Shown piece by piece: positions 11,032-62,392 of a stretch of DNA of 64,000 nt. The position numbers and the translations under genes are program-made. The stretch is from Porphyromonadaceae bacterium (GTDB lineage: Bacteria; Bacteroidota; Bacteroidia; Bacteroidales; Porphyromonadaceae), in assembly GCA_037191085.1 (NCBI GenBank), contig JBAKGE010000001.1, positions 1,089 through 65,088 on the forward strand, in the 5' to 3' direction. Below the pieces are notes generated by a model. That model made no database searches, was not told the DNA's origin, and worked only from the letters and a program-made list of their open reading frames with translations. Each line of letters starts with the position of its first letter. Position 1 is the first letter of the stretch.

Positions 11032-11109
11032 CTCTGGGTCGTCGACTTGCCGATGTCCCAGAGATCGTCAAAGAAAGCTCTGGGTCATCGTTTCATCGAC
11101 GACCCAGAG
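11032..11109. repeat. 78-bp double-palindrome REP/BIME-like element, copy A
   Basis: CTCTGGG-N18-CCCAGAG-N14-CTCTGGG-N18-CCCAGAG; the second unit extends to a 20-bp perfect stem. Confidence 0.92.
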
Positions 11110-11276
11110 CTTTCTTTGACCGCTGTGTATAGAATGTAGTTAAGAGAAAATGATGATAAGATCGCTTAGGCCTGACTAACGAGCGCAGGTCGTGCGTAAA
11201 CAGATATGCCAAGAGTACCTCAGAGCGGTAGATACTCTTGGCATTGTCCATATTGTTTTTGCTGTGTTTCGTCGGC

Positions 11277-13430
11277 TTATTTGCCGAATATTCTCCGCCA
11301 GAGTGATTTTCGCTGAGGTTTCTGCTGTGGGACGAATGTCGAATCTGTTATCGCTCCGGAGGTACCGGGGAGGCTGACGAAGTCTCGTGTTAGGTCGTAC
11401 ATCGCCATTTGCGTGCGGATAGGTTGTGCACTATTGTCTCGCTTGGGGACGTTTTCGAGGTTCTCGTTGATGTACACCGCATTAGTATTATCTGCCATGC
11501 ACAGGTTGAGGACTCTGCGTAGGTAGTCCTTGATCACCGAGTCGTAGACGGGTGCTGCACACTCTATGCGACGGTAGAGGTTACGCCCCATCCAGTCTGC
11601 TGAGGAGATATAGTACTTTTCCTCCCCTCCGTGCTTGAAGTACCAGATACGAGCATGCTCGAGGTAGATATCCACGAGACGTATGATACGGATATTTTCG
11701 CTGAAGGGCATATTGGGAATCACGCGGCAAATACCTCGTATGAGGAGATCTATCTGTACCCCTGCTCCTGAGGCATCATAGAGCTTACTAATCACACCGG
11801 GATCCTCCATGGAGTTCATCTTAAGTATAATACGTGAGGGCCGACCGGCTTTGGCTTCCTTGATCTCGTAGTCGATGAGGTTATGTATTTCCTCTGCCAT
11901 GCCGTGGCTCGCTATGAGCAAGTGGTCGAATGTTATTTTTTTTCTGGGTTGCTCGAGGTGGTTGAAGAGGAGAATCAGTTCATCGGTGAGTGCTATGCGT
12001 GAGGTAAATATGGAGACGTCGGAGTAGAAGCGTGCAGTCTTCTCATTGAAGTTCCCCGTGCTGAAAATGGCGATTCCGGACTTGTTTGGAATCGCATCGG
12101 TGTGAAACTCGATGACGCACGTCTTGGCATGCACCTTGAGACCCGGCAGTGAGTAAATGATCTTGACTCCATGCCGGGTCATGCGATGTGCGGTGTTGAG
12201 GTTATTCTCCTCATCGAATCTCGCCTTCAGTTCCACAAATACGGTAACTTCTTTTCCATTATTAGCAGCCTTTATAAGGGCATCGATGACGTCCGAATCC
12301 TCTGCGACACGATACTGGGTCAGCTTGAGGCCTTTGACTCTCGGATCCTCGGCTGCCTCATGGAGGAGGTATAGCAGGTAGGAGAATGATGTGTAGGGGA
12401 CGAATACAGCCTCGTCCTGACGTAGGATATGGTTTATCTTGCTCTGATGTGTATCCCAGCGGACATGTGGTATTGGTTTCGGGTACTGCTGTGCGAAGTC
12501 TGGGCCCAGAGGATTCTCCAGCTTAATGAGATCCTGCAGCTGCAGGTGACGGCGCCCTTTGAGCAGATCTTCGGCTTTTAGGCCAAAAGCTTCCTGTAGG
12601 ATGTGTAGTACCTCCATGGGCATTTCGTCGTCGTATTGAAAGCGTGTGATGTCGCCGATCTTACGCTTGCTGATAAGCTCTTCTATGTTCTCTGCAAGCT
12701 GTTCGCCACCTTCGTCGTCAATCTCAATGTCCGCATCTCGGGAGGTCTTGAAGCTGTATGACCCAAGAACGTCGTAGCCCGGAAATATATCCCTTAGCCC
12801 AAAGCGTACCACCTCGTCTACGAACGTGTAGGCATAGCGTCCCTCCGGCGAGGGGACGCGGAGGAATCGTGGAACCTTTGTGAATGGGAGTTTGATGATA
12901 TAGCATCGTACTGCCTCGTTGAGATGACGGCGGAGGTGAACAGCGAGGTAGATACGCTTGTCGCGGAGGAAAGTCTTGACTAAACTGGGACTTACTGGCA
13001 CAGGCTGGAGAAAAGGATATACCTCATTCTTGAAGTATCCTTCGATATAGTTCCGCACCTCTGGCGTGAAGGAGCGGAAATCCGTGTACACGTCTATGCC
13101 AACAGCACGTAGGTCAGGCACCATGACATCTTCCCATGCCTTGCGGAAGATAGACTCCTGATCATTGACTTCCGCGATCACGTCATGTAGATCATCGATA
13201 CGCTCCTGTAAGTCTTCGCGTTTAGCGGCACGCCGCCGAGCAATAGAGGCCTTCGCACCGGCTACTCGGATCTGGTAGAATTCTTCTAAGTTAGAGGAGA
13301 AAATGGACAGGAATTTGATACGCTCGAACAGTGGGACTGTGGAGTCCATGGATTCCAAGAGCACACGCTTATTGAAAGAGAGCCAGCTGATATCCCTGCC
13401 AAAGTAGGAATATTTCTTGTCGGATGTCAT
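11277..13430 (-). CDS. ppk1: Polyphosphate kinase 1
   Basis: RDISWLSFNKRVL, SSNLEEFYQIRVA, ELKARFDEENN, LKVHAK, YLEHARI, SSADWMGRNL; start moved to MTSDKK. Confidence 0.95.
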   Translation of the reverse strand: MTSDKKYSYFGRDISWLSFNKRVLLESMDSTVPLFERIKFLSIFSSNLEEFYQIRVAGAKASIARRRAAKREDLQERIDDLHDVIAEVNDQESIFRKAWEDVMVPDLRAVGIDVYTDFRSFTPEVRNYIEGYFKNEVYPFLQPVPVSPSLVKTFLRDKRIYLAVHLRRHLNEAVRCYIIKLPFTKVPRFLRVPSPEGRYAYTFVDEVVRFGLRDIFPGYDVLGSYSFKTSRDADIEIDDEGGEQLAENIEELISKRKIGDITRFQYDDEMPMEVLHILQEAFGLKAEDLLKGRRHLQLQDLIKLENPLGPDFAQQYPKPIPHVRWDTHQSKINHILRQDEAVFVPYTSFSYLLYLLHEAAEDPRVKGLKLTQYRVAEDSDVIDALIKAANNGKEVTVFVELKARFDEENNLNTAHRMTRHGVKIIYSLPGLKVHAKTCVIEFHTDAIPNKSGIAIFSTGNFNEKTARFYSDVSIFTSRIALTDELILLFNHLEQPRKKITFDHLLIASHGMAEEIHNLIDYEIKEAKAGRPSRIILKMNSMEDPGVISKLYDASGAGVQIDLLIRGICRVIPNMPFSENIRIIRLVDIYLEHARIWYFKHGGEEKYYISSADWMGRNLYRRIECAAPVYDSVIKDYLRRVLNLCMADNTNAVYINENLENVPKRDNSAQPIRTQMAMYDLTRDFVSLPGTSGAITDSTFVPQQKPQRKSLWRRIFGK

Positions 13431-13736
13431 ATATGCTTCAGATTCTAATATTATCTCTATCTGATTGGGCAAATGTACTTATTTTCACGGAAATATTTCG
13501 CTTGTGCTTCTGGTGTTTAGCTGTTGTGGATGTAATGAAATATTGATATTGTGGGGATGAATCTTCCGGAAATCCTCCATAAAGTTTTCTATTTTGGGAA
13601 ACTTATTGGTTTGATTTTGTTGAATAGTTTCCCACTTGTTTATTTATATTGTTGTGGGTTAGTTTGTTATGTTTTTGTTGGTTGGTGTCTGTGAAAATTT
13701 ACAATCTTTTCTGATTGTATCAATGGAATATATTGT

Positions 13737-13744
13737 TATCTTTG
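13737..13744 (+). promoter_or_regulatory. -7 promoter element upstream of the riboswitch
   Basis: TATCTTTG matches TAnnTTTG. Confidence 0.6.
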
Positions 13745-13749
13745 TTCAG

Positions 13750-13960
13750 GTATTCGGTGCTTGGCAATTAGGGAGCTTTGCTTCTCGAAATTGTGTAGGC
13801 TTAAAATGGGAATTGGGTGAGAATCCCAGACTATCCCCGTAGCTGTAAGCTCAAGATGCCTCGGTGCGATATATCCACTGTCCGCAGATAGCTAATGACT
13901 GTCTATAGGGTGGGAAGGATGCACTACTCAGGAGGCGAGCAGAGTCAGAAGACCTGCCGA
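13750..13960 (+). ncRNA. Cobalamin (AdoCbl) riboswitch
   Basis: Conserved blocks in order: AAAATGGGAA-TTGGGTGAGAATCCCA-GACTATCCCCGTAGCTGTAA, CCACTG, GGGAAGG, AGTCAGAAGACCTGCC; upstream of nrdD; boundaries approximate. Confidence 0.9.
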
Positions 13961-14006
13961 ATACGGCATCATTACATTACAAACAACTACTAAAACACAA
14001 TGTAGC

Positions 14007-16214
14007 ATGATTCGATCAGTAATCAAACGCGACGGGCGTATCGTGGGATTCAACGAAGAAAAAATCTGTTCAGCTATCCGAAAAGCTATGCTCCATACCG
14101 ACGGAGGAGAGGATGAGGCTCTGATCCAGCGTATCAGTACGCGGATTTCCTGCAGTGCCAAAGAACAGATGGGTGTGGAGGAGATACAGGATCTCGTAGA
14201 GGCCGAACTCATGTCCAGCCCGCGGCAGGATGTAGCTAAGAAGTATATCGCTTATCGTCACCAGCGTAGTGTGGCTCGAAAGGCAAAGACAAGGGATATG
14301 TTCCTTGAGATCATAGAGGCTAAGTCCACCGACGTAACTCGAGAGAATGCCAATATGAATACTGACACTCCGGCAGGGATGATGATGAAGTTTGCCAGTG
14401 AGACGACCAAACCTTTTGTGGACGACTTCCTTCTCTCCGAAGAGGCTCGTACCGCTACGGAGCAAGGTTATTTGCACGTGCACGACAAGGATTACTATCC
14501 CACCAAAAGTCTGACCTGTGTCCAACATCCATTGGATATAATACTGGAGAAAGGGTTCTATGCAGGGCACGGAGAGTCGCGCCCTGCCAAGCGTATTGAG
14601 ACGGCAAGTATCCTTGGATGTATATCTCTTGAGACGGCACAGAATGAGATGCACGGCGGTCAGGCGCTACCGGCATTTGACTTTTATCTTGCCCCCTTTG
14701 TACGCAGTAGCTTTGTGGAGGAGGTGAAGGTATTGGAGGAGATGAATGGAGCTGACTATTCCGACCTATACGGAGCTAAGATTGTTGACTATGTGCAGGA
14801 ACCACTCGGACATCTGGAAGGAAACGCTCGCATACTCCAACACGCCATCAATAGGACTGTCGAGCGGGTACATCAGGCGATGGAGGCATTCATTCATAAT
14901 ATGAATACGATTCACTCTCGTGGAGGTAACCAAGTGGTTTTTAGCTCCATTAACTATGGTACAGATACTTCTGCCGAAGGACGGTGTGTCATCCGAGAGC
15001 TGCTTCACAGTACTTATAGAGGGGTGGGCAATGGTTCTACGGCAATCTTTCCGATACAGATATGGAAGAAGAAAAGAGGAGTGAGCTACCTTCCTGAAGA
15101 TCCGAATTACGATCTCTACAAACTTGCATGCAAGGTCACAGCCAAGCGCTTTTTCCCGAACTTCCTCAACCTTGATGCAGACTTTAATACCCACGAGAAG
15201 TGGCGCGCCGATGATCCTAAGAGGTATATGTATGAAATGGCTACTATGGGATGTCGTACACGTGTCTTCGAGAACCGATTCGGGGAGAAGACCTCTGTTG
15301 GTCGTGGCAATCTTTCTTTCTCCACCATTAATATTGTCCGCATTGCCATTGAGTGTATGGGGATAGAGGATAGAGAGGAGCGGATAGGAGCTTTCTTCGA
15401 AAAGTTGGATCAACTCCTTGAGATTACAGCACGTCAGTTGCACGATAGGTACTCCTTCCAGAAGACAGCACTTGCCAAGCAGTTTCCTCTCCTTATGTCC
15501 AAGCTTTGGCGTGGAAGCGAATCCCTCAAACCCAATGATACGATAGAGAGTGTTATCAACCAGGGGACCCTTGGTATCGGATTTATAGGACTTGCCGAGT
15601 GTTTGGTGGCTCTTGTCGGTAAGCATCATGGCGAGAGCACGGAGGCACAGGATCTGGGACTACAGATTATAGGACACATGAAAGAGAAAGTAGATGAGTT
15701 CTCTGAACGCTATCAGCACAACTACAGTGTGTTGGCTACACCAGCTGAAGGATTAGCAGGGAAATTCACTGCCAAGGATCGCAAAGCATTCGGTACATTG
15801 GTGGGGATTACGGACAGGGCGTTTTACACTAATTCCAACCATGTCCCTGTCTACTACAAGTGCTCCGCCGAGCATAAAGCCAGAGTAGAAGCTCCATACC
15901 ACACGTTAACCCGAGGAGGACATATATTTTATGTCGAAATAGATGGGGACGCAACCCACAACCCGGAAGCAATAATGCAGGTAGTCGATATGATGGACAA
16001 GTATAACATAGGATATGGATCTGTCAATCACAATCGCAATAGATGCTCAGATTGTGGATACGAGAATGCAGATAAAGAGATGCACTCGTGCCCCAAGTGT
16101 GGCAGCACTCGTGTAGATAGGCTGCAGCGTATCACTGGTTATCTTGTGGGCACCACTGACCGATGGAATAATGCTAAGCTCGCTGAGCTCAATGCCCGGG
16201 TCACGCACGACTGA
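14007..16214 (+). CDS. nrdD: Anaerobic (class III) ribonucleoside-triphosphate reductase
   Basis: N-terminal ATP cone (VIKRDGR), HVHDKDYY, MGCRT, TPAEG, CxxC...CPKC, RITGYL glycyl-radical motif. Confidence 0.96.
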   Translation: MIRSVIKRDGRIVGFNEEKICSAIRKAMLHTDGGEDEALIQRISTRISCSAKEQMGVEEIQDLVEAELMSSPRQDVAKKYIAYRHQRSVARKAKTRDMFLEIIEAKSTDVTRENANMNTDTPAGMMMKFASETTKPFVDDFLLSEEARTATEQGYLHVHDKDYYPTKSLTCVQHPLDIILEKGFYAGHGESRPAKRIETASILGCISLETAQNEMHGGQALPAFDFYLAPFVRSSFVEEVKVLEEMNGADYSDLYGAKIVDYVQEPLGHLEGNARILQHAINRTVERVHQAMEAFIHNMNTIHSRGGNQVVFSSINYGTDTSAEGRCVIRELLHSTYRGVGNGSTAIFPIQIWKKKRGVSYLPEDPNYDLYKLACKVTAKRFFPNFLNLDADFNTHEKWRADDPKRYMYEMATMGCRTRVFENRFGEKTSVGRGNLSFSTINIVRIAIECMGIEDREERIGAFFEKLDQLLEITARQLHDRYSFQKTALAKQFPLLMSKLWRGSESLKPNDTIESVINQGTLGIGFIGLAECLVALVGKHHGESTEAQDLGLQIIGHMKEKVDEFSERYQHNYSVLATPAEGLAGKFTAKDRKAFGTLVGITDRAFYTNSNHVPVYYKCSAEHKARVEAPYHTLTRGGHIFYVEIDGDATHNPEAIMQVVDMMDKYNIGYGSVNHNRNRCSDCGYENADKEMHSCPKCGSTRVDRLQRITGYLVGTTDRWNNAKLAELNARVTHD

Positions 16215-16704
16215 TCTCCTCCTCTCTATCCTCGACATACGTCGGAGCACTACGGTGGATGGACCAGGATTTCGTACCAGTATCTACACGTCTGGCTGTC
16301 CTCATGCATGCCCAGGGTGCCATAACCCCGAGTCGTGGTCGATAGCAAATGGGACCCTTACACCCCTCGAGGATATTATGGAAGTGGTGGAGAATGAGAC
16401 TTTCTCCAACGTCACACTCTCAGGCGGTGATCCACTTTATCAAGTAGAGACGGTGACGGAGCTATGCCGGCTGATCAAAGCCCGTACGACCAAGACTATC
16501 TGGTTGTATACCGGCTATACTGTTGATCAGATTATTGCGTCAGGACGATTGTCTATGATCCTGCCTTACGTGGATGTCATTGTCGATGGTCCTTTTGTCC
16601 AAGCACTGAAAGACGAGGACCTACTCTTTCGAGGGAGCCGTAATCAGCGAATCGTTGACATATGTCAGACCCTCCGATGTGGTCATATTGTAGAGCTGGA
16701 CTAA
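16192..16704 (+). CDS. nrdG: Anaerobic RNR activating protein (radical SAM)
   Basis: VDGPGFR, CxxxCxxC, SGGDP, FRGSRNQR; start placed at ATG 16192, overlapping the nrdD end. Confidence 0.92.
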   Translation: MPGSRTTDLLLSILDIRRSTTVDGPGFRTSIYTSGCPHACPGCHNPESWSIANGTLTPLEDIMEVVENETFSNVTLSGGDPLYQVETVTELCRLIKARTTKTIWLYTGYTVDQIIASGRLSMILPYVDVIVDGPFVQALKDEDLLFRGSRNQRIVDICQTLRCGHIVELD

Positions 16705-16718
16705 GGGACAAAAAGTAG

Positions 16719-16754
16719 AGGCTATCTATAGTTAATGCTATAGGTAGCCTTTTT
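16719..16754. terminator. Bidirectional intrinsic terminator
   Basis: AGGCTATCTATAG-TTAATG-CTATAGGTAGCCT then TTTT; A-tract on the left. Confidence 0.8.
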
Positions 16755-16756
16755 CG

Positions 16757-17782
16757 TTACAAGTAAGAGATTAATTCATCGATGTCTTCAGGTTGTGTGG
16801 CCCAACTGGTGACGAACCGGACAGGTGTCTCTGTCTCTCCTCTGATACCCCAAAGCTCGAAAGAAACATGACTGCGGAGACTATCTATGATTTCATTCGG
16901 GAGGATGATAAACTGTTGGTTCGTCGGTGAATCGATGTACAGTCGATAACCTCTGGATACGAATGCTGCTTTTAGTCGAAGCGCACACTCTACTGCCTGT
17001 CGGCTGATGTCCCAGTACAGGCGGTGACTAAATAGGGTCTCGAATTGCACACCCAGTAGTCTTCCTTTCGCGAGCAATCCCCCATGTTGTTTAATCAGTG
17101 GCATGAAGTGCGGGAGGAGCTCAGGGCGGTCTGTCACCACTGCTTCACCGAAGAGTGCTCCGACTTTCGTCCCACCGATATAGAAGACATCACACCACTT
17201 TGCTATATCTTCTATCGTTACATCGCACATCGGAGATGTGAGACCATAGCCGAGACGCGCTCCGTCTATATACAGTGGTATATCGTGTATATGGCAGACC
17301 TTACTCAGTTCCTGCAACTCTTGTCGACTGTAGAGAGTACCCACCTCGGTGGGGAATGAAATGTACACCATTCCCGGAGCTACCATGTGCTCGTACGTAT
17401 TATCCTTGTAGAAGTCCCTCACATACCTGTCTACGTCCTTAGCCCTTATCTTGCCTTCATAAGTTGGCAGGGTCAGTACCTTGTGCCCGGTTGCCTCTAT
17501 AGCACCTGTCTCATGGACGTTGATATGAGCTGTCTCAGATGCCAATACTCCCTCATGGTGTCTCAGTAGGGCATCTATCACAGTCGCGTTTGTCTGTGTT
17601 CCACCGATCAGAAAATGTACAACCCCATCCTCCAGCCCGCATGTCTTAAGGATAAGTGCACGAGCTCGGGCTGTGTATGGATCCGTGCCATAGCCCGTTG
17701 TGTGTTCGAGGTTTGTCTCTTCTATTCGGCGCATCACCTTCGGATGTGCTCCTGCCGTGTAGTCGTTGTCGAAGTAAAGCAT
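16757..17782 (-). CDS. ltaE: Low-specificity L-threonine aldolase family (PLP)
   Basis: FDNDY, GYGTD, GGTQTN, HINVHETGA, IDGARL, GGTKVG, RFVTSWAT. Confidence 0.85.
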   Translation of the reverse strand: MLYFDNDYTAGAHPKVMRRIEETNLEHTTGYGTDPYTARARALILKTCGLEDGVVHFLIGGTQTNATVIDALLRHHEGVLASETAHINVHETGAIEATGHKVLTLPTYEGKIRAKDVDRYVRDFYKDNTYEHMVAPGMVYISFPTEVGTLYSRQELQELSKVCHIHDIPLYIDGARLGYGLTSPMCDVTIEDIAKWCDVFYIGGTKVGALFGEAVVTDRPELLPHFMPLIKQHGGLLAKGRLLGVQFETLFSHRLYWDISRQAVECALRLKAAFVSRGYRLYIDSPTNQQFIILPNEIIDSLRSHVSFELWGIRGETETPVRFVTSWATQPEDIDELISYL

Positions 17783-17801
17783 TGTATTGTCCCTCGGATG
17801 A

Positions 17802-20015
17802 TTATTTGAGATGAATAAACCGTAGTCTCAAACTATTGAGAACCACACAGACGGAACTGCATGCCATGGCTGCAGCTGAAATCATCGGCGTAATCGTCAG
17901 CTCTGGGGCATATACACCTGCTGCCAGAGGAATAGCGATTACGTTGTAGAAGAAAGCCCAGAAGAAGTTCTGTCGGATGATTTGTACCGTCTTCCGTGAC
18001 AGCTCTATCGCCTTGGGGATTGATGAGAGTGCCCCTCCTACTGATGTCACTTGTGCCACGTCCGTGGCGATATCACTGCCAGTAGCCAGAGCGATGCTTA
18101 GGTCTGCTGTCGCGAGGGCAGGTGAGTCGTTGATGCCGTCACCTACCATTACCACCACTTTCCCCTCTCGCTGTAGTGTTTCGACATATTCTTTCTTATC
18201 TATTGGCGATAGCCCTCCTCGTGCCGTGCGGATGCCCAGTCTGTCGCCCATTAGTCGAGCACGTGCAGGCGTATCACCCGACAGGATGTGCGGTGTCACG
18301 TGATAGTTTGTCTGTAGACGTGAGAGCACGTCGGGGGCTTCGACTTTGACCTCATCCGATAGTGCCAGTATTGCTATTAATCTGTCTTTTCGAGCGAAGT
18401 ATACCAGGCTCTGGTGTGCGTTTCGATCCATGAATGTTTGTATCCTTGGGATCATGATGTCTGCACCCTCATATCTATTCGTCAGACTGTATGCACTATC
18501 TCCGTGGGTGAATGTCACCCCTCTGCCAGCTACCTCCTGTGTCTTCAAGCCCTCCGCCATGAATCCCTCTACCGAGTCATACGCTCGCACAATGGCCTGT
18601 GCTATGGGGTGATTGGAGCCCTTTTCGGCGGTCACCATGAGTGCCTGTAGTTCGGGACTCGACTGTAGCCACAGATCCTCTACCACCATGATCTCACCCT
18701 GGGTGAGTGTGCCTGTTTTGTCGAATATGATGTCTGTGACTTTGCTCAGGCGCTCCAAAGCACCGGCATCACGGATCAGGAGTCCTGCTTCGGAGGCTTT
18801 GCCCATAGCCACAGCAATTGCTGTCGGTGTCGCTAACCCCAGCGCGCATGGGCACGCAATGACGAGGACACTAATAGAGTAGTATAAGCCATATATCCAC
18901 GAAGCCTCGGTGTCGCTCATACTCCAGGCGATAAGGGTGATGAGAGCTATGACTATGATCGCTGGTACGAATACCCCCGATATCCTATCTGCGATACGCT
19001 GTATGGGAGCTTTGGATGCCTGAGCCTGTCGTACCGCATCTACGATACGTCCGAGGAGTGTATCGGCACCTACCTTCTCTGCCCTAAATGTCGTCACCTG
19101 ACCTACCGAAATGGTTCCGCCGAATACCGCGTCGCCTATTCCCTTTTCAGCGGGAATAGGTTCGCCGGTGATACTGCTCTCGTCGAACGATCCCGTCTCC
19201 TCCAGTCTTCCGTCCACAGGGACTCTATCTCCCCTGCGTAGCATAAGAAGGTCGCCCACACGTATCTCGCTCACAGGTATTGTGTCCCATGAACCTTGCT
19301 TGGCGGGGTTTGCCCGTAGGGCTTCGGTAGGTGCCAGTGCCATGAGCTTTCGCAGAGACTCGGTCGTCTCCTTCTTTGCACGCTCTTCGATGAACTTACC
19401 CAAGAGCACAAATGTTATGATCATCCCGATGACATCGAAGTATGAATTGCCAAAGATCCCCTGTAGCTGCGCATCTCTTGCCGTGAAGTAGCGTACCAGA
19501 CTAAAGGTATAAGCCACAGTGATACTCATGCTTATGAGCGTGTCCATAGTGAATGTCAGATGTCTCAACTGCCGCAAGGTGCGGGCGTGATAGTCCCATG
19601 CGCAGAAGAAGTAGACCACGGTGGCAGCTATGAGGTTGAAGGTATGCCCTGCCCCCGGACTCAGACCTATCAGGTGTGGGTGCATGCCGATGATCATCAT
19701 CGACGTGCCAAGTACTGCAGCCACGATGAGGCGTACCAGTACCCTGTGTGCCTCACGGTGCTCCACCTGTTCACGCACGGCTGTCTGCTCCTCTACCGAG
19801 TCGCTGATCAGCAGGTCGTAGCCGATGCTGCGTACAGCTAACTGCAGGGTTTGTGGGGATGTGACTTCGTCATCATAGGTGATTGCGGTGCGTCCCTCAA
19901 GTAGGTTGACCTCCACAGAGGCGACACCGGGAGACTTGGAGAGGGTGTCCTGCACTGCCGCGACACAGCCCGCACAGCTCATGCCTGTGACGGTATATAG
20001 TTTGGTCTTATTCAT
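17802..20015 (-). CDS. copA: Copper-translocating P1B-type ATPase
   Basis: HMA motif GMSCAGC, TGEP, CPCAL, DKTGT, GDGINDSPAL, YN and MACSS copper ligands. Confidence 0.92.
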   Translation of the reverse strand: MNKTKLYTVTGMSCAGCVAAVQDTLSKSPGVASVEVNLLEGRTAITYDDEVTSPQTLQLAVRSIGYDLLISDSVEEQTAVREQVEHREAHRVLVRLIVAAVLGTSMMIIGMHPHLIGLSPGAGHTFNLIAATVVYFFCAWDYHARTLRQLRHLTFTMDTLISMSITVAYTFSLVRYFTARDAQLQGIFGNSYFDVIGMIITFVLLGKFIEERAKKETTESLRKLMALAPTEALRANPAKQGSWDTIPVSEIRVGDLLMLRRGDRVPVDGRLEETGSFDESSITGEPIPAEKGIGDAVFGGTISVGQVTTFRAEKVGADTLLGRIVDAVRQAQASKAPIQRIADRISGVFVPAIIVIALITLIAWSMSDTEASWIYGLYYSISVLVIACPCALGLATPTAIAVAMGKASEAGLLIRDAGALERLSKVTDIIFDKTGTLTQGEIMVVEDLWLQSSPELQALMVTAEKGSNHPIAQAIVRAYDSVEGFMAEGLKTQEVAGRGVTFTHGDSAYSLTNRYEGADIMIPRIQTFMDRNAHQSLVYFARKDRLIAILALSDEVKVEAPDVLSRLQTNYHVTPHILSGDTPARARLMGDRLGIRTARGGLSPIDKKEYVETLQREGKVVVMVGDGINDSPALATADLSIALATGSDIATDVAQVTSVGGALSSIPKAIELSRKTVQIIRQNFFWAFFYNVIAIPLAAGVYAPELTITPMISAAAMACSSVCVVLNSLRLRFIHLK

Positions 20016-20226
20016 TGATTGATATGTGTTATTTATCTATTTGTATGTTCTTCTGGCATAAATCGTACTTGACCTATGTGCAGGAGGATACCATGTGTCT
20101 CTGCAGGGGGGATGACATGTAGGACATCATCCCATATGTGTGCTCAATGTACAATACCCACTGCGCGAAGTCTTGCTGATGTTCGTCTGTTCGCTCGTAG
20201 ACTTGTCTATTGAATGGCCAAGATTT

Positions 20227-20304
20227 CTCTGGGTCGTCGATAGAACGATGTCCCAGAGAAATTTTTGGAAAACTCTGGGACATCGTTTTATCGATGACCC
20301 AGAG
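20227..20304. repeat. 78-bp double-palindrome element, copy B
   Basis: Same 7-18-7-14-7-18-7 layout; lies between copZ and copA. Confidence 0.92.
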
Positions 20305-20452
20305 AAATTTTTCTCGGAGAAATGGTGGTTGTCTCCGAATCACCTGCTATACAAGCATGCAATCCACGTGGTATATCGTGTACGTGCCTGTGTACGAAAG
20401 TGATAGAGTATCGTGTTGGGTCGTAGTTGTAGTGCTTCCTCCTCTGCATGTC

Positions 20453-20665
20453 TTAGAGCACAAGGTCGTAGCCCGCATCTTTTACCACTGCCTGTAGCTG
20501 CCTGAGGCTCACAGTGCCATCATCGTAGGTGATAGTGACTTGCTTCTCGGGGAGGTGAATTTCCGCGGACTCCACACCTGGGATTTGAGAGAGTGCTACC
20601 TTGACAGCTGATGCACACATGGCACACGCCATACCATTAACATTGTATGTATTGGTTACTTTCAT
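20453..20665 (-). CDS. copZ: Heavy-metal (copper) chaperone, single HMA domain
   Basis: 70 aa, GMACAMC, ends GYDL. Confidence 0.88.
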   Translation of the reverse strand: MKVTNTYNVNGMACAMCASAVKVALSQIPGVESAEIHLPEKQVTITYDDGTVSLRQLQAVVKDAGYDLVL

Positions 20666-20692
20666 GATTGTATGGGTTTATTGATTGGGTAT

Positions 20693-21820
20693 TTATTGAC
20701 ACTCAAAGCCAATGAGACGGAGTGATTTCTCTTCGCTAGGCGTAGCGTTTAGTACGGTATACGCCAACGGTTCACGGGGGTAGTCGTAGGTGCGACGTAG
20801 CTCCTCGAATCGTTCTGTATTTGCCCTCAGTGCTTTATCCACCAGCCGAGGACGGAATGTAGAAAGTATGGCACCGGCGATGCGATCTTTGCTCTGTGGC
20901 AGGGCGTTGAGGTCGATGATTGGTGTCGTGGGGGGCGGTGGGGTCATCAGCGATAGGCGAGTGCTGGTGAGTCCGAAGTGTCGCAGACCATTCTCCACAC
21001 ACATGCGTGCACCATTAGCTTTGCCGTCGGCCGAGAAACCTGCGATATGTGGAGTGCCTATGAATACTCTATCCAGTAGTTCGTGTGAGATATGGGGTTC
21101 ACCTTCCCAGCAATCAATAGCGACCTTATCGATCAGTCCTTCGTCCAAGCCCATGAGGAGTGCTCGGGTGTCGGTGATAGGACCGCGGCAGTAGTTTGTC
21201 ACTATGGGTGTGCGTTTGAGTGATCGGATGAAGTTCTCGTCGCAGATGTGATAGGTCGCATGACGTCCCTCGTGGGTCAGGGGGAGGTGAAATTCTACTA
21301 TGTCTGCTTCCTCTGCTATTGTCTCAAGGGAGACGAAACCATATGCTCCCTCACGCTCGGTACGAGGTGGATCGTTGAGGAGGACACGCATGCCCAACGC
21401 CTCAGCGTAGCGTGCGGCGTACATGCCTGTATGCCCGGCTCCTACGATGCCCATGGTCTTACCTTTCAGGTCGTAGCCACCCTCTTCTATCAGTGTGCTG
21501 AGCACAGCACCGGCATAAAGACCTACACCACCGGCATTACAGCCGGGCGAATTGTACCACCGAATACCATGAGCAGTGCAATAGTCGGTGTCGATGTGAT
21601 CGTAGCCTATGGTAGCAGTGGTGATGAGCTGGACACTCGTTCCTTCCAGTAGTTTCGGCGTGCACTTCGTGATGCTACGTATGATGAGCCAGTCCGCATC
21701 TCGCACACTGTCTCCATTGAAGTCATCGGACCGTATATACTGCACATCCCCCAGCTCCTCTATCACTCCACGGAGGTAGGGTAGTGAGCTCTCTGCTATG
21801 ATACGTGGGCGTCGGGTCAT
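20693..21820 (-). CDS. pdxB: Erythronate-4-phosphate dehydrogenase
   Basis: TATIGYDHID, PGCNA, GAGHTG, NDPPR, HLPLT, TPHIAGFS. Confidence 0.9.
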   Translation of the reverse strand: MTRRPRIIAESSLPYLRGVIEELGDVQYIRSDDFNGDSVRDADWLIIRSITKCTPKLLEGTSVQLITTATIGYDHIDTDYCTAHGIRWYNSPGCNAGGVGLYAGAVLSTLIEEGGYDLKGKTMGIVGAGHTGMYAARYAEALGMRVLLNDPPRTEREGAYGFVSLETIAEEADIVEFHLPLTHEGRHATYHICDENFIRSLKRTPIVTNYCRGPITDTRALLMGLDEGLIDKVAIDCWEGEPHISHELLDRVFIGTPHIAGFSADGKANGARMCVENGLRHFGLTSTRLSLMTPPPPTTPIIDLNALPQSKDRIAGAILSTFRPRLVDKALRANTERFEELRRTYDYPREPLAYTVLNATPSEEKSLRLIGFECQ

Positions 21821-21835
21821 GGGTGGGTCTTCTTT

Positions 21836-22264
21836 TTACTTGGACTGCTGAGCGGCAGCGAGGAGCTTGATGTGCCGAATCATGGCAAGAAGACCATTGG
21901 AGCGAGTGGGGGAGAGGTGCTGGCGCAGCCCCAGCTCGTCGATGAAGAAAAGGTCAGCCTCTGCGATATCACGTGCCTGTTGTCCGGAGAGTACCTTGAG
22001 GAGCATAGCGATAATACCCTTTACGATGACAGCATCGCTATCAGCGGTGAAGAGGATAGTACCGTCGGGCTGTGGGTGCCCCACAATCCAGACACGACTC
22101 TGGCAACCTTCGATGATATTATTGGGGATTTTCTCCTCTACGGCTATGGGAGCAAGCTCATTGCCCATCTCGATAATGAGCGCATAGCGATCCATCCAGT
22201 CGTCCAGAAAGGCGAATTCGTCTATGATCTCGTGTTGTATTTCGTCGATTGTTTTCATTCTCAT
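21836..22264 (-). CDS. sufE: Fe-S assembly sulfur acceptor SufE
   Basis: IEGCQSRVW, DSDAVIVKG, HLSPTRSNGL. Confidence 0.93.
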   Translation of the reverse strand: MRMKTIDEIQHEIIDEFAFLDDWMDRYALIIEMGNELAPIAVEEKIPNNIIEGCQSRVWIVGHPQPDGTILFTADSDAVIVKGIIAMLLKVLSGQQARDIAEADLFFIDELGLRQHLSPTRSNGLLAMIRHIKLLAAAQQSK

Positions 22265-22275
22265 ATTCTAGTCTA

Positions 22276-23322
22276 TTACTTTGTATGGGCAGCATCGTAG
22301 TCTGTGAGTACTTGCCATACTGTCTGACCTACCGCCCGGAGGGTTGAGGTGCTTATGTTGTCTATATTATCCTTGTGTGTGTGCCAATAGTGTCCGAAGC
22401 CATTGGCAGTATGAGGATTGTAGTTGATGATGTCTACGCAGGGGATTCGTCTGTACTGCATTACGAATACGTGGTCATCGGTCACACCACCACCCATTTC
22501 GTTGCGGAAGTAGCTCTGGTATCCCAGTCGAGCAGCGGTCTCCCATACCTTTGACACGTACTGGCCTGCGTATTCTTGGCTGTACTGTTCTCGATAGAAC
22601 GTGGCATCTTTGGATCCAACCATGTCTAGTAGGATGCCGAAGTCTGCTCTGTAGTCTGTCGTGTGTGGATGTTGTGCCCAATACTGTGAACCGAGAGCCC
22701 AAGTAGTGGAGGTGTCGCCCTCGTAGGTTACGTGAGCGGGGACCCCGTAGTCCTCCGCGTCAAAGAGCACTATATCCACACCGATACTCTGCATCGGTAG
22801 TGTACGTAGGAGCCGTGCAATCTCCATGAGCACTCCTACACCACTGGCGCCGTCGTCGGCCCCATCGATTGGCTTCGACCTGAGTGCGTGATCCTCATCG
22901 TGGTCTGCGAGTGGACGAGTGTCCCAGTGAGCGCAGAGGAGTATGCGGGTCGTGGCATTAGGATTGTGCACTCCTATGATGTTGATAGCCCGGAGGGTTG
23001 TTCCGTCCCATGCCGTTAAGTCCGCCGCTTGTTCTGTCACCGTCAACCCTTGACTGCGGAGGTAGTCGGCGAGATAGGTAGCGCAAGCACGATGGGCGGA
23101 AGTATTGGGTACACGAGGACCGAAGTCCACCTGCCGCCGGATGTGAAGTAGGGCAGAATCCGCCACGAAAGGTGAGGTCCTCTTGGGGGCATTCTCCTCC
23201 ATATCGGTTGTGTGCTCTGTGCTGGTCGTACTGGATGACTGTGACTTGCCGCCATTGCATGAAGCGGCAGATAGGACGAGTGCTATGGTGGTTGTCGTGA
23301 TAGCTAATAGTCTATGTATCAT
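22276..23322 (-). CDS. M28-fold lipoprotein, probable glutaminyl-peptide cyclotransferase
   Basis: Lipobox AASC; FGPRVPNT, AHWDTRP, GADDGASG, DAEDYG, LLDMVG, DDH, WHT. Confidence 0.82.
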   Translation of the reverse strand: MIHRLLAITTTTIALVLSAASCNGGKSQSSSTTSTEHTTDMEENAPKRTSPFVADSALLHIRRQVDFGPRVPNTSAHRACATYLADYLRSQGLTVTEQAADLTAWDGTTLRAINIIGVHNPNATTRILLCAHWDTRPLADHDEDHALRSKPIDGADDGASGVGVLMEIARLLRTLPMQSIGVDIVLFDAEDYGVPAHVTYEGDTSTTWALGSQYWAQHPHTTDYRADFGILLDMVGSKDATFYREQYSQEYAGQYVSKVWETAARLGYQSYFRNEMGGGVTDDHVFVMQYRRIPCVDIINYNPHTANGFGHYWHTHKDNIDNISTSTLRAVGQTVWQVLTDYDAAHTK

Positions 23323-23351
23323 GTGTTATATGCGTATGGTTTCTGATCTAT

Positions 23352-24602
23352 TCAGTGGTTACTCTTCCCTTCGTATACCAGTCCCGCGATGCAGTCGGGG
23401 TGGAATATTTCTGCTGCAGTCTGCCGTAATCTCTCTGCCGTCAGCTGCTCTATCTGTCCGTATACTACGTCCAATGGTTCAAAATTCCCCCTGTGCAATA
23501 TCTGTCGACCAAAGGATAGAAAAGTTCCTTCGCTATTCTCCGTCGCCATGGCTAATTGCCCTTTGACTTGCTTGATCCAAGCCCGAAGAGCGGTCTGAGT
23601 AATCGGGGTTTCCGTCATCCTCTGTAGCTCCTGTAGCGTTACTTGCAGTGCAGGTTCTGCGTGGTCAGGATCGCTGCCAAAGTAAATCTCCCACCACCCT
23701 GTATCCGAGAGCGTAGAGCTACTTCCTTCCACCCCATATACCCAGCCGTGTCGCTCACGGAGTAGCAGATTGAGACGGGTATTCATCCCTGCCCCTGCGA
23801 GCATGTTCATCAGGAAAGCCACTGGTATGCGCCCCTCATCATGCAACGACGAACACATGCCACCTATCAGCGTATGTGACTGGTGGGTGCCCTTTGGGAT
23901 ACGGTGTATCCCTATCCGCTTCCGAGGGATTGGCGGATGATTAGGGGTCCGGTGATCCTCTGCGGATCCGAAGGGAGCTCCGAGGTATTTCTCTGTGAGC
24001 ATCACAAATCGCTCCTCCGATACCTGTCCCATGCAGAAGAACACCATTTGCTCGGGACGAAATGCGGAGTGTGCGTAGTCGAGACACGTCTCCGAGGTCA
24101 TGCGCGAGAGACTTTCGGATGTGCCGAGGATAGGGTGCCCGAGGGGAAAATCACCCAGAAGTAACTCCTCGAAGTCGTCGAAGATTTGCTCCGATGGCGT
24201 GTCCTTGTACAGGTTGATCTCATCCGCTACTACCACTCGCTCCTTCTCCAGTTCGTGTGCCGGATAGGTCGAGTACCGCACGAGGTCGCCCAGCAACTCA
24301 ATGCTACGAACTAACTCTCTGCGTGGAGCGCTGGTGTAGATGAATGTATCTTCCTTTGTCGTATATGCGTTTAGTTCTCCACCCACCAATTCCATGCGTT
24401 TGTTGATGTGGAAAGCACGGCGCTTTTCGGTACCTTTGAAGAGCAAATGCTCCACGAAGTGCGCCAAGCCAGGGTACTCTGCAGGGTCGTTGCGGCTACC
24501 GGAATGAATGGCGAAGCCACAGTACGCTACACGGCTGTGTGCTGGTAGTAATGCCACGCGGAGTCCATTGGAGAGAGTATGTATGAAATAATTGCGGTTC
24601 AA
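23352..24602 (-). CDS. M16 family (pitrilysin) peptidase
   Basis: HFVEH inverted zincin motif, LNAYTTKE; TTG start at 24602 inferred from a TACTTTTG promoter at 24632-24639. Confidence 0.88.
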   Translation of the reverse strand: MNRNYFIHTLSNGLRVALLPAHSRVAYCGFAIHSGSRNDPAEYPGLAHFVEHLLFKGTEKRRAFHINKRMELVGGELNAYTTKEDTFIYTSAPRRELVRSIELLGDLVRYSTYPAHELEKERVVVADEINLYKDTPSEQIFDDFEELLLGDFPLGHPILGTSESLSRMTSETCLDYAHSAFRPEQMVFFCMGQVSEERFVMLTEKYLGAPFGSAEDHRTPNHPPIPRKRIGIHRIPKGTHQSHTLIGGMCSSLHDEGRIPVAFLMNMLAGAGMNTRLNLLLRERHGWVYGVEGSSSTLSDTGWWEIYFGSDPDHAEPALQVTLQELQRMTETPITQTALRAWIKQVKGQLAMATENSEGTFLSFGRQILHRGNFEPLDVVYGQIEQLTAERLRQTAAEIFHPDCIAGLVYEGKSNH

Positions 24603-24699
24603 CCTCTTTTGTCTTTTCGTGAATACTATCGCAAAAGTACACATTTCCGGGGGCACCGAATAACATTTTAATGATATATTGACCATTTCTCCTCCACCG

Positions 24700-25998: not shown

Positions 25999-26013
25999 CT
26001 TCGTACAAAATTT

Positions 26014-26091
26014 CTCTGGGTCGTCGATGAAGAAAGGTCCCAGAGAACGAAAACGAAAGCTCTGGGTCATCGTTTCATCGACGACCCAGAG
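26014..26091. repeat. 78-bp double-palindrome element, copy C
   Basis: Same layout; fills the gap between two convergent stop codons. Confidence 0.92.
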
Positions 26092-26141
26092 CTTTCTTAT
26101 ACTTTGTCCGAAGGGTTCTCTATCGTTTGAGGGAGAAAAAG

Positions 26142-27182: not shown

Positions 27183-27197
27183 GGGGAAATCTTTTGT

Positions 27198-28163
27198 TTA
27201 GAGTTGATCGATGATTGTGTAGTTATTGCGATTGGGAGCTTGTCGTGCGATGAGTTCGCCGACAAAGCCTGTGAGGAAGAGTTGTACGCCAAGGATAATA
27301 GCGAGGATGCAGATGTAGAAGTAGGGGAGATCTGTGACCAGACGTGCGGGGATGCCCTGTCGTAGCATGACAAACTTGTGTACCAGAATGGCGAGGAGAG
27401 CTATGAAGCCGATGATGAACATGATGCTTCCCCAGAGACCGAAGAAGTGCATCGGTTTGCGACCAAATTTGCCGGTGAACCAGAGCACGAGAAGATCAAG
27501 ATAACCATTGACAAATCGGCTCATGCCGAACTTAGTGGTGCCGTACTTCCGTGCACGATGCTGCACCACCTTTTCAGTGATGCGCCCGAAGCCTGCTTGC
27601 TTAGCCATGTAGGGGAGAAAGCGGTGCATGTCATTGTAGACCTCGATACTCTTGACTACATCACAGCGATAAGCCTTGAGCCCGCAATTGAAGTCATGCA
27701 ACTTGATGCCTGAGAACTTTCGGACAGTGGCATTGAAGAGCTTAGTAGGCAGGGTCTTGGAAAGGGGGTCATAACGTTTTTTCTTCCAGCCACTGACTAC
27801 GTCGTATTTCTCTTCTGCGATCATTCTATAGAGCTCAGGGATCTCGTCGGGAGAATCCTGTAGATCTGCATCCATGGTGATGATAACGCGCCCATTGGCC
27901 GCCGAGAAGCCTGTCTGGAGAGCGGGAGACTTACCGTAGTTTCGGCTGAAGCAGATGGCACGAATAGTGCGATCCTGCTGCCATAGTTCTTGGATGATGC
28001 TCCAAGAGCCATCTGTACTGCCGTCGTCGACAAAGAGGATCTCGTGGCTGATACCCATGTCAGTGACGACGCGCTTTATCCAGCTGTACAACTCGGGGAG
28101 TGACTCCGCTTCGTTGAGGAGAGGGATGAGTACCGTTAGGTCAGTGGAGGGGGTGGTGTGCAT
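27198..28163 (-). CDS. Glycosyltransferase family 2 (polyprenol-phosphate glycosyltransferase-like)
   Basis: DDGSTDGS, RNYGKS, MDADLQD, DFNCGLKAY; two C-terminal TM helices. Confidence 0.9.
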   Translation of the reverse strand: MHTTPSTDLTVLIPLLNEAESLPELYSWIKRVVTDMGISHEILFVDDGSTDGSWSIIQELWQQDRTIRAICFSRNYGKSPALQTGFSAANGRVIITMDADLQDSPDEIPELYRMIAEEKYDVVSGWKKKRYDPLSKTLPTKLFNATVRKFSGIKLHDFNCGLKAYRCDVVKSIEVYNDMHRFLPYMAKQAGFGRITEKVVQHRARKYGTTKFGMSRFVNGYLDLLVLWFTGKFGRKPMHFFGLWGSIMFIIGFIALLAILVHKFVMLRQGIPARLVTDLPYFYICILAIILGVQLFLTGFVGELIARQAPNRNNYTIIDQL

Positions 28164-31135: not shown

Positions 31136-31678
31136 ATGGACCAGTTTCATTCGACGTTTCAGACTGTTTATATCTCCTCTTGTGATACCCCCTGTGGTAC
31201 TATCATTCTCGGTGGTGTCAAGGATACCTTGTGCCTATGCGACTGGCAGTGCCGTCGTGATGCTCTTGCTTTTTGTCGTCGGCTCCAAAACCGACTTTCT
31301 GCCGTGCCGAAGGAGTCCGAAACTCCCGTTATCGTCGCTGCCAGGTCCCAGATCGATCAGTACTTCACTGGGGCACGAACTCGCTTCGACCTCCCTCTCA
31401 CCATAGCAGGTACGGCCCTGCAGATGCAGGTTTGGCGAGAACTCCTTACAGTCCCTTACAGCAATACTATCTCCTACCGGGAGCTGGCCGAGCGTGTCGG
31501 CAGACCTCGGGCAGTGCGTGCCGTAGCTAATGCTGTCGGCGCCAATCCCCTCTCCCTTTTCGTCCCCTGTCATCGTGTCATCGGTAGCGATGGTACCCTC
31601 ACTGGCTATGCCGGGGGACTTGAGACCAAGCGATACCTCCTACAGCTCGAGCAAAAAATCACCACTCCTCTGGGATAA
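31136..31678 (+). CDS. ogt: Methylated-DNA-protein-cysteine methyltransferase
   Basis: PCHRV active site, GTALQMQVW, LTGYAGG. Confidence 0.93.
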   Translation: MDQFHSTFQTVYISSCDTPCGTIILGGVKDTLCLCDWQCRRDALAFCRRLQNRLSAVPKESETPVIVAARSQIDQYFTGARTRFDLPLTIAGTALQMQVWRELLTVPYSNTISYRELAERVGRPRAVRAVANAVGANPLSLFVPCHRVIGSDGTLTGYAGGLETKRYLLQLEQKITTPLG

Positions 31679-31730
31679 TGTCATGGTGGCCTGCTTGGCT
31701 ATACACACGCTCAGACATGTGTCAAAAAAT

Positions 31731-31808
31731 CTCTGGGTCGTCGATGAAGCGATGACCCAGAGATTTCTCCTGCGACCTATGGGAGGTCGATTTATCGACG
31801 ACCCAGAG
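31731..31808. repeat. 78-bp double-palindrome element, copy D (linker in reverse orientation)
   Basis: Same layout; reverse complement of the linker, GTCGCAGGAGAAAT, matches the linkers of E, F and G. Confidence 0.9.
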
Positions 31809-32072
31809 GTTTCTTGGGGGGATGCCCGCACGTTTTGGACGAGTGGTAGGGGGAAGCTTGCCATCATAATCTTACGGTCACTGTGTCTATAGATGCAGGG
31901 AAAACCGTGCGTCAAGGCAAAACGTTTGAGCGAACTGACTGTCTCTTTTTTGCGTCTCTCGCAGAGGATTTATTACCGTATTGTGAAAAAGAAGAGTTAC
32001 CTTTGTCCTGCAGCTTTTTAGTGGACTGTGTGAGAGTCGTTGTAATAATACCAAATAGATGCCCGACAAGAG

Positions 32073-38928: not shown

Positions 38929-39006
38929 CTCTGGGACGTTGATTCACCGACGTCCCAGAGGTCTCTGAGAAAAGCTCCGGGACATTGACAGAGCGACGAC
39001 CCAGAG
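38929..39006. repeat. 78-bp double-palindrome element, copy E
   Basis: Same layout; upstream of the fimbrial locus. Confidence 0.88.
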
Positions 39007-61139: not shown

Positions 61140-62125
61140 TGTCCAGAGGGGAGGTAGACCTTTTGAATCACTTCACGATACTCCTTTTCCGCTTTGCTAT
61201 CGATCGTAACCCCACCGCCGCTCTGGTAGGTGAAGTGCCCGTCGGCATCCTGGCTGATGAATCGGATGAGTACCCCACTATCAAGGGTCTCGCCGTCGTA
61301 GTATCCCACGACCCCTGTATAGAAACCTCTTGGCTCCTGCTCCGCATCACGGATGAGCTGTAGTGTGCTAACCTTCGGGGTGCCACAGATAGAGGCAGCG
61401 GGGATAAGCGCGTCGAAGAGATCGCCAAGGGCTGTGCGGTATTCGGGCTTGAGCTGGCCTGCGATCTCGCTACTCACCTGTAGGATATCTCCCGTAGAGT
61501 GGGCTATGCGTGTGAAAAAGCGGAATCGCTCACAGCTGACGTCATCGGCTACTGCTTTGAGTTCATCTACCATCATCTCCACCATAGTTACGTGCTCACG
61601 TGTCTCCTTGTAGTTATTGAGGATTGCCATTTCCACATCCGGAGTGGAAGCGTCTATGGTGCCTTTCATGGGCTGCGAACCGATTCGACCATTTTTATCG
61701 ATCGTGACAAAAGTCTCCGGAGAGAAACATACCCAATGCCCGGGGATGCACATACGGTACTTAGCGGTGGTGCTGTGAAATATTTCCTCCAGCGTACCGT
61801 CAATGGTCATTGGTGTGCGTACGGTGAGGTTCGTGAGCCTGGTGCGTCCGTCCTCCAGTCCTGCTCTGACGATAGCGAATCGTTCGCAGTAGCGCTCAAA
61901 AGACTCTGGTTGGATACTCCAGGTGATAGCCCGTGGTGCTGTGGTCGTGGTGACATTGGTGACACCGTGGAGGTCGAAGAGGATGTCTGTCTCTGCTGTC
62001 AGTGGATCCGCGATGACATAGCCCTCGCTCTTTTCGTAGTCGAGTGCGAAGACAAAGGGGCGGTGCTCCTGTCCGTAGCGATTCATCGCTGCTACGGCAT
62101 CCTTGAAGGTCATGCTCTGTGCCAT
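61133..62125 (-). CDS. pabB: Aminodeoxychorismate synthase component I (short Bacteroidota form)
   Basis: FSPETF, PMKGT, KETREH, SICGTPK, RGFYTG, SGGGVT. Confidence 0.85.
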   Translation of the reverse strand: MAQSMTFKDAVAAMNRYGQEHRPFVFALDYEKSEGYVIADPLTAETDILFDLHGVTNVTTTTAPRAITWSIQPESFERYCERFAIVRAGLEDGRTRLTNLTVRTPMTIDGTLEEIFHSTTAKYRMCIPGHWVCFSPETFVTIDKNGRIGSQPMKGTIDASTPDVEMAILNNYKETREHVTMVEMMVDELKAVADDVSCERFRFFTRIAHSTGDILQVSSEIAGQLKPEYRTALGDLFDALIPAASICGTPKVSTLQLIRDAEQEPRGFYTGVVGYYDGETLDSGVLIRFISQDADGHFTYQSGGGVTIDSKAEKEYREVIQKVYLPSGQC

Positions 62126-62314
62126 GTTTTGTGTAGGTGAGTGGTTGTGTTAGTAATTTGCAACGGCAAAGGTAAGAAAATGCTCCATAGTTACGTATCT
62201 TGTCGAAATAAAATATCGTAAGATAACGAGAGTTCTGCGCAAGGATAAACCACGCCATCTTAGGCGAGGCATCGCTTCGTTTGCCTGAAACATGTGGATA
62301 CACCCAGTAGAAAC

Positions 62315-62392
62315 CTCCGGGTCGTCGAAAAATCGACATCCCAGAGGTCGTCTCCGAAAGCTCTGGGTCATCAATGAAGCGATGACCCAGAG
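62315..62392. repeat. 78-bp double-palindrome element, copy G
   Basis: Same layout; lies between pabB and cas3. Confidence 0.9.

Follow-up and report, generated by a model that had tools for sequence, protein, structure and literature searches.

The 64-kb window analysed here, a stretch of 64,000 nucleotides from the genome of a Porphyromonadaceae bacterium (contig JBAKGE010000001.1), contains seven copies of a double palindrome of 78 bp, CTCTGGG-N18-CCCAGAG-N14-CTCTGGG-N18-CCCAGAG, which forms the core of a dispersed repeat family. This core is under purifying constraint on both its sequence and its exact spacing. The reading that we favour, at a probability of roughly 0.55, is that the core is an exapted four-site platform for a putative multimeric protein, of the dimer-of-dimers type, that binds duplex DNA sequence-specifically, and that it is kept by selection at the level of the host.

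Constraint on the core and its anatomy

Allowing up to two mismatches, the unit CTCTGGG-N18-CCCAGAG occurs 14 times in the window, where shuffled sequences have 0.25 on average and never more than 2, and the 14 units make up seven pairs at an offset of 46 bp (11032/11078, 20227/20273, 26014/26060, 31731/31777, 38929/38975, 51888/51934 and 62315/62361). The heptamers are intact in 10 of these units, each of the other four having one heptamer change, and a scan of the 64 kb with a hidden Markov model (HMM) of the core added no copy to the seven. The sequence-only reading of this DNA had described seven intergenic 78-bp double palindromes, and its coordinates and the 18/14/18 spacing are all reproduced; all seven copies lie between genes.

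Many further copies lie outside the window. The assembly (2.13 Mb in 163 contigs, 48% GC, rated 99.7% complete) carries 274 loci that match the core HMM. A loop of exactly 18 is found in 408 units genome-wide, compared with 1-9 units at each of the remaining loop lengths between 8 and 30, and in 174 cases a spacing of 14 leads from CCCAGAG to CTCTGGG. Strict 46-bp pairs number 151 among the 408 units, and the ~100 units that appear to be single are mostly pairs with a more mismatched partner. The copies are old and diverged, with pairwise identities of 0.59-0.66 at the non-heptamer positions of the core. The exact unit, present 202 times in this genome, is absent from 24 genomes of the same genus and 16 of the same order, and the double pattern was not found in 185,000 species genomes, the JGI metagenomes or IMG/VR. 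Because the nearest congeners are distant, to call the family species-specific amounts to saying that it arose after a deep split. No hairpin family of similar copy number built on other heptamers was seen in 400-kb samples of two congeners, the listing for genome G013 being dominated by runs of N and partly read. The window yields only a cobalamin riboswitch and a tRNA in Rfam, and the family only chance matches to miRNA hairpins far under the threshold; the earlier remark that the sequence was not recognised as a described family holds, inasmuch as no account of it was found in Rfam or in the literature searched.

The constraint is best seen from outside the core. Wider alignment of the flanks revealed a longer repeat of ~350 bp, in which a left arm of ~165 bp and a right arm of ~100 bp surround the core, adjoining it in 87 of 91 left and 72 of 73 right cases, with most of the exceptions at contig ends. 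The initial searches had selected on the heptamers and on fixed spacing; the 59 loci compared below were picked by matches to the left and right arms only, which avoids heptamer selection.

Region; identity to consensus; insertion or deletion (indel) events; copies
Arms (~250 nt); 0.63; 329, that is, 0.020-0.026 per nt per copy; 59
Core (78 nt); 0.83; 0; 59
Heptamers; 0.91-0.98; 0; 59
Loops; 0.54-0.68; 0; 59

With all loop and linker lengths within +/-4 admitted, the four heptamers fit best at 18/14/18 in all 59 loci, in agreement with the earlier claim that the copies carry no indel. At the rate of the arms, simple arithmetic (78 nt x 59 copies) predicts ~100 indels in the core, where none was seen. 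The TCG/CGA triplets, too, are kept in the resident cores. Each of the ~60 long copies thus brings along its own neutral control, the arms, and the comparison offers clean evidence for a transposon-borne motif domesticated as a putative protein site, in a class of repeats, the MITEs (miniature inverted-repeat transposable elements) and those resembling repetitive extragenic palindromes (REPs), that are usually taken to be decaying junk or hairpins.

In its oriented form, the consensus reads AaAAAc-CTCTGGGTCGTCGAT.aATCGAcGTCCCAGAG-GTcGtcAaAGAAAG-CTCTGGGTCATCGatTcAtCGACGACCCAGAG-CTTTTT. The core consists of four half-sites of ~14 bp (CTCTGGG-WCR-TCGA) in alternating orientation, at offsets of 0, 18, 46 and 64 bp; when all are read in the same direction, CTCTGGG-TCG-TCGA is the sequence of sites 1 and 4, CTCTGGG-ACR-TCGA that of site 2 and CTCTGGG-WCA-TCGA that of site 3. 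The two outer sites thus resemble each other (TCG type), as do the two inner ones (ACR/WCA type), which gives the unit as a whole a dyad that runs through the 14-bp linker. The most complementary pair is that of the outer arms, with 1.66 mismatches per 14 positions compared with ~3 inside each hairpin, and each hairpin has a mismatch that is itself conserved: of 124 copies, 90 have T:T at stem position 8 in hairpin 1, and 84 have A:C at position 10 in hairpin 2. By simple arithmetic, the inner heptamers are 21 bp, or two helical turns, apart. The 78 bp had previously been taken as a free-standing element, a view that we abandon: the unit is oriented, it continues for 6 bp or more to either side, and four of the seven copies in the window run into the decayed arms of the longer element.

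Pairing of the stems was evaluated on a gap-free alignment of 47 oriented copies with 500 shuffles. Under the two-hairpin model, 83.7% of the cells are paired, compared with 84.8% in the shuffles, 498 of 500 of which score at least as high; the covariation score falls under the shuffle mean for the two-hairpin and the long-hairpin models alike, mutual information at paired positions is weak, and the folding energies of the two strands are equal, with no asymmetry. The stem arms are complementary, it turns out, only because each stays close to one consensus. The lack of covariation combined with the fixed spacing implies that selection acts on the sequence and spacing of the four half-sites and that pairing as such is not selected. 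This pattern fits recognition of duplex DNA by a putative symmetric multimer and argues against a function as RNA or as single-strand hairpins. The sequence-only reading had considered that strict spacing with free sequence pointed either to a four-site geometry recognised by a protein or to a substrate for mobilisation; the absence of indels and the lack of compensation in the stems favour the former, and the latter is disfavoured.

Variant architectures built from the same heptamers are present as well. CTCTGGG-N16-CTCTGGG and its mirror image are found in 35-45 cases each and have a direct period of 23 bp, half of 46, and there are "inside-out" hairpins, GGTCCCAGAG-N14-CTCTGGGACC (CCCAGAG-N14-CTCTGGG type), in which a palindromic spacer is followed by a run of T. 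These variants add up to a few dozen copies, and examples are located at C35:18049-18150, C54:8457-8560 and C111:15562-15650 of the assembly.

The long form, the short form and the IS982-type ends

The long form ends in terminal inverted repeats, the left one being TTAACGTGAGTTCGACaTAAGAAAT and the right one ATTTCTTAgGTCGAACTCACGTTAA, and the consensus ACGTGAGTTCGAC-N-TAAGAAAT is present at both ends. Exact matches to this consensus of 21 bases number at least 120, compared with an estimated chance expectation of ~0.3, and come from other genomes, among them those of Kordia, Tannerella and other Bacteroidota, Pyrinomonadales, Leptospira and Waddliaceae; MITEs of 180-400 bp account for most of these matches. 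A distance of ~1.02 kb separates the repeats in Leptospira weilii, Nonlabens and a metagenome-assembled genome of Flavobacteriaceae, and in the first two they enclose IS982 transposases (NF033520, E=9e-77 and 1e-58; PF13612, E=6e-74). Closer to the host, the congener G018 has at least seven intact IS982 copies, the repeats of which match those of the long form at 19 of 22 positions; one of these copies has ACGTGAGTTCGGGATAAGAAAC at one end and the inverted counterpart at the other, together with a duplication of ATAAT. Within the genus, 11 of 24 other genomes match NF033520, 4 of them over the cut-off. In the family itself, a 5-bp target duplication is discernible in a few copies (ACATT at C159:772), most ends being too decayed to read. 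Judged by its ends, then, the long form is an IS982-type MITE, because its terminal repeats flank autonomous IS982 transposase genes elsewhere; it has no coding capacity for a transposase, the only open reading frames (ORFs) over the elements being spurious ones of 81-154 aa from a crude gene caller.

The near letter-for-letter identity of ACGTGAGTTCGAC-N-TAAGAAAT in MITEs of 180-400 bp extends over Bacteroidota, Acidobacteriota (Pyrinomonadales), Leptospira and Chlamydiae (Waddliaceae). These foreign MITEs often abut TTAA, and Kordia and one Bacteroidota metagenome-assembled genome each have many copies of them; among the loci L162-L241 of other genomes, examples are L174:620-820, L165:4960-5145, L203:2263-2527 and L168:6897-7290.

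The 218 classifiable loci comprise 64 with both arms, 66 with partial arms, 79 of the short type and 9 without a match to the whole element. The short form is a bare unit of ~90 bp, AAAAWWT-core-AAATTT, which matches the model over the core only and in which conservation stops ~6 bp outside the core. The long and short types differ at diagnostic positions (site 3, with TCATCG against ACATCG, has such positions) and hence represent subfamilies, beyond mere stages of decay.

The family looks like a fossil, extinct as a mobile element, because no transposase of the IS982 family and no REP-associated tyrosine transposase (RAYT) is found in the assembly, all the terminal repeats are decayed and there are no near-identical copies. 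Specifically, NF033520 has no match in the assembly at E<=0.01, and a six-frame search with PF01797, which found the control in 6 genomes, recovered no Y1/HUH RAYT, so that the absence of a RAYT, noted earlier for the window, holds for the whole assembly. Of the terminal repeats in the genome, the best still shows 2 mismatches, and no more than one is located at a contig end, with no young repeat seen; no repeats of at least 300 bp at 85% identity or more involve the family, and no pair of copies is near-identical. The other transposases of the assembly are one decayed DDE_Tnp_1 fragment and one rve gene. The sole DDE_Tnp_1 match, at C13:1389-1658, has seven stops and lies ~150 bp from the repeat copy at C13:1811. 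Tyrosine recombinases have 15 matches, two of the best of which are ~0.5 kb from an element, a proximity judged to be compatible with chance. Between closely spaced or inverted copies, no transposase-like gene was noticed, the ten ORFs there looking like housekeeping genes by eye, with no Pfam scan.

The origin of the long form bears on two further claims of the sequence-only reading. Its framing of the family in terms of REPs and RAYTs gives way to one in which about half of the loci centre a ~350-bp MITE with IS982-family ends, in an assembly that has no RAYT. It had also held that a match to a known insertion sequence (IS) end would count against its interpretation; such a match exists in part, in that the 78 bp themselves match none but the terminal repeats of the carrier MITE are IS982-family ends.

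Placement in the genome and the competing explanations

The copies are effectively all intergenic, those that appear to lie within ORFs being accounted for by spurious small ORFs from the crude caller. The flanking genes are convergent at 51 copies (background 125), tandem at 76 (367) and divergent at 19 (147), an enrichment of convergent sites for which simple arithmetic gives a chi-square of ~24.6 and p ~5e-6. Orientation relative to the flanking genes shows no preference (45 against 31). The copies are spaced more evenly than by chance: the coefficient of variation is 0.555, compared with 0.787+/-0.056 when each intergenic region is allowed a single element (none of 500 simulations came down to the observed value), and neighbouring intergenic regions are both occupied in 51 cases, where 89.6+/-4.5 would be expected, both comparisons resting on crude gene calls. 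An arm is present at no more than 14 of the 326 contig ends, such that assembly breaks do not explain the even spacing; it would fit a saturation of the permissive sites, target immunity when the elements inserted, or a function that depends on spacing.

Under the favoured interpretation, the exapted platform, a past IS982 transposase, one not found in this assembly, would have spread the long form, and the ~80 arm-less copies of ~90 bp would have reached their sites by a second route, separate from IS982. After insertion, the arms would have decayed by substitutions and indels, and the core would have been kept by host-level selection, in a role perhaps comparable to that of the integration host factor (IHF) site of Correia elements or of protein binding by bacterial interspersed mosaic elements (BIMEs). 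We entertain, more tentatively, a broader picture in which ~270 hitherto unrecognised platforms distributed along the chromosome serve a lineage-specific multimeric protein, having been seeded by an extinct burst of an IS982-type MITE together with the second route and then domesticated, and in which the even spacing (about one per 6-8 kb) might reflect the organisation of the chromosome or of transcription units. If true, this would be a Bacteroidota counterpart of the BIME/gyrase-IHF sites, with a four-site geometry stricter than in any described REP-like family; to our knowledge, REP-like systems have barely been described in this phylum.

Several observations weigh against this interpretation. 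The enrichment at gene 3' ends also fits a role at the level of the transcript. No IS982-type terminal repeats are found at the 79 short loci, the spread of which an IS982 transposase cannot explain, and neither the autonomous IS982 elements nor the IS982-type MITEs of other taxa contain the 78-bp core, which bears on where the core came from. The absence of the transposase is that of an assembly in 163 contigs, the smallest of 1330 bp, from which a collapsed 1-kb IS may be missing. Finally, DNA matches between the congeners and the host are confined to short coding stretches at 73-80% identity, such that neither empty sites nor dating could be obtained.

The explanation at the RNA level, that the copies are bidirectional intrinsic terminators or stabilisers of 3' ends, GC-rich hairpins flanked by A/T as described for the REPs of Escherichia coli, appears unlikely to us, even though it would account for the placement towards gene 3' ends, for the consensus flanks (AAAAAC/AGAAAG ahead of the hairpins and CTTTTT behind them), for the terminator-like second hairpin of copy 3 and for the lack of an orientation preference, which a bidirectional device would show. 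Against it, neither stem model shows compensation, mismatches are conserved and there is no strand asymmetry in folding energy; the loops of 4 and the linker of 14 are invariant, although terminators tolerate changes in length. Moreover, of six hairpins in 10000-29999, one passes a lenient terminator scan, and 19 copies lie between divergent genes. That the copies are not simple terminators had been proposed from the window's gene orientations, and the analysis supports it.

We regard it as still less probable that the core is a substrate of transposition, be it a REP-like pair of hairpins for a HUH/RAYT-type or unrecognised enzyme or an internal transposase-binding enhancer, kept by selection on the element. 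The family is, to be sure, high in copy number, dispersed, intergenic and restricted to one lineage, as REP/BIME families are; the core is central in the MITE; and the ~80 short copies that lack IS982 repeats call for another route of spread. However, the six-frame search gave no Y1_Tnp, no transposase-like gene was seen by eye between close copies, there are no young or identical copies, the stems lack the covariation expected of hairpin substrates and the autonomous IS982 relatives are devoid of the core. Selection on the element cannot keep every resident copy intact after insertion, yet 59 of 59 are intact. The remaining alternative, that the copies are neutral fossils the apparent conservation of which stems from ascertainment on the heptamers, gene conversion or self-correction of quasi-palindromes, is largely refuted and, in our estimate, very improbable. 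The age and divergence of the copies (0.59-0.66 at the non-heptamer positions) and the choice of heptamers and spacing in the first searches speak for it, but ascertainment by the arms gives the same result, and the conservation is position-specific, which argues against conversion tracts. Self-correction, for its part, would raise complementarity and leave the lengths of loops and linker free, whereas mismatches are conserved and pairing is not above that of the shuffles. On the exapted-platform reading, the 78-bp core is a defined and directly testable binding target.

The seven window copies, similar repeats and neighbouring genes

By the whole-element HMM, copies 1, 4, 6 and 7 in the window are of the long type, with decayed arms, and copies 2, 3 and 5 are short. 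The features are as follows.

10876..11031, + strand: decayed left arm of the IS982-type MITE that carries copy 1, the right arm being lost (HMM match 10876-11118, model positions 13-257, E=2e-48)
11032..11109, + strand: core copy 1, long type, two exact units (orientation and class from the whole-element HMM)
20227..20304, no strand assigned: core copy 2, short type, AAATTT-core-AAATCT, no arms (model positions 171-257 only)
26014..26091, + strand: core copy 3, short type, between convergent glycosyltransferase and ApbE genes that are 143 bp apart
31653..31861, - strand: decayed MITE around copy 4, with part of the left arm and the greater share of the right one (HMM model positions 116-329, E=8e-48)
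31731..31808, - strand: core copy 4, long type (unit match and whole-element HMM)
38929..39006, no strand assigned: core copy 5, short type, with divergent flanking genes (unit match and HMM)
51888..51965, + strand: core copy 6, long type, in a decayed element at 51858-52026 (unit match and HMM)
62188..62429, + strand: decayed MITE around copy 7 (HMM model positions 48-282, E=8e-46)
62315..62392, + strand: core copy 7, long type (unit match and HMM)

In copy 1, the terminal repeat has decayed past 3 mismatches, and the flanks of the second hairpin lengthen its stem, GTCAAAGAAAG...CTTTCTTTGAC.

Some of these loci can be followed in public samples. At the copy 4 locus (31731), the element is present in 10 other samples with a handful of single-nucleotide polymorphisms, and the copy 6 locus (51888) is 100% identical over 221 bp in two others; at neither is there an empty allele among the public contigs, which contain the element or end inside it. 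For 20227, a single public contig has unchanged gene spacing, the sequence of the element being unread, and the one contig for 11032 ends inside the element. The Logan contigs of ten samples (L150-L159) all begin at the same base in the first heptamer of copy 4, so that the repeat breaks k-mer assemblies at a fixed point. One of the ten samples has CCCAAAG in heptamer 4 of this copy.

The closest precedent for the long form is MITECca01 of Cardinium, an IS982-derived MITE that originates from ISCca4 (PMC9769881). Both are short, non-coding, multi-copy and lineage-specific, with inverted repeats of the IS982 type. However, MITECca01 coexists with intact parents and looks active, whereas here no parent was found and the terminal repeats are decayed; unlike in MITECca01, too, an internal 78-bp core is better kept than the ends of the element, and ~80 copies lack terminal repeats altogether. 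Like the REP/BIME elements of Enterobacteria and Pseudomonas, the family consists of paired, imperfect, intergenic palindromes, numbers hundreds of copies and is enriched at the 3' ends of genes. It differs from them in having no RAYT gene, stems without covariation, rigid spacing where BIME architecture is variable, and half of its copies within a DDE-type MITE. BIMEs bind host proteins, and the Correia elements (CREE/NEMIS) of Neisseria are MITE-like, with inverted ends and an internal IHF site. Like the family described here, Correia elements are found in hundreds of copies in a genome of ~2 Mb, in one lineage and with no cognate transposase there; unlike it, they have unrelated sequence and terminal repeats and a single IHF site, compared with the nameable parent family (IS982) and the four-fold palindromic array seen here. 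BrickBuilt, MITE239 and MITE464 of Porphyromonas gingivalis (PMC4596501) are likewise MITEs with internal short-period repeats from the same general bacterial group. BrickBuilt has IS5-type terminal repeats (GAGACCTTTGCA) and tandem direct repeats of 23 nt (PMC4596501); identity with it was rejected, given that both the terminal repeats and the repeat unit differ and that neither heptamer is among the sequences in PMC4596501. Integron attC sites, which belong to cassette arrays beside an intI gene, were rejected as well, given that the copies stand one by one among housekeeping genes, with a median of 5.2 kb from one to the next.

The genes of the window are recognisable as common Bacteroidales housekeeping genes, with ppk, nrdD, copA, apbE, ogt and fimbrial genes among them; a protein of the fimbrial region has its nearest named matches in Porphyromonas, Fermentimonas and Proteiniphilum, at 36-42% identity, by which the host would be Porphyromonas-like. 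The cobalamin riboswitch, at 13738-13975 (87.5 bits), is directly upstream of nrdD, the gene for the anaerobic ribonucleotide reductase (14007-16214). An ORF of 171 aa at 62912-63427, which begins 520 bp past copy 7, matches the HD domain of Cas3 only (PF18019, E=6e-7). Elsewhere in the assembly, self-matches at multiples of 27 bp in C112:36330-36864 reveal a tandem array of ~540 bp with a period of 27 bp.

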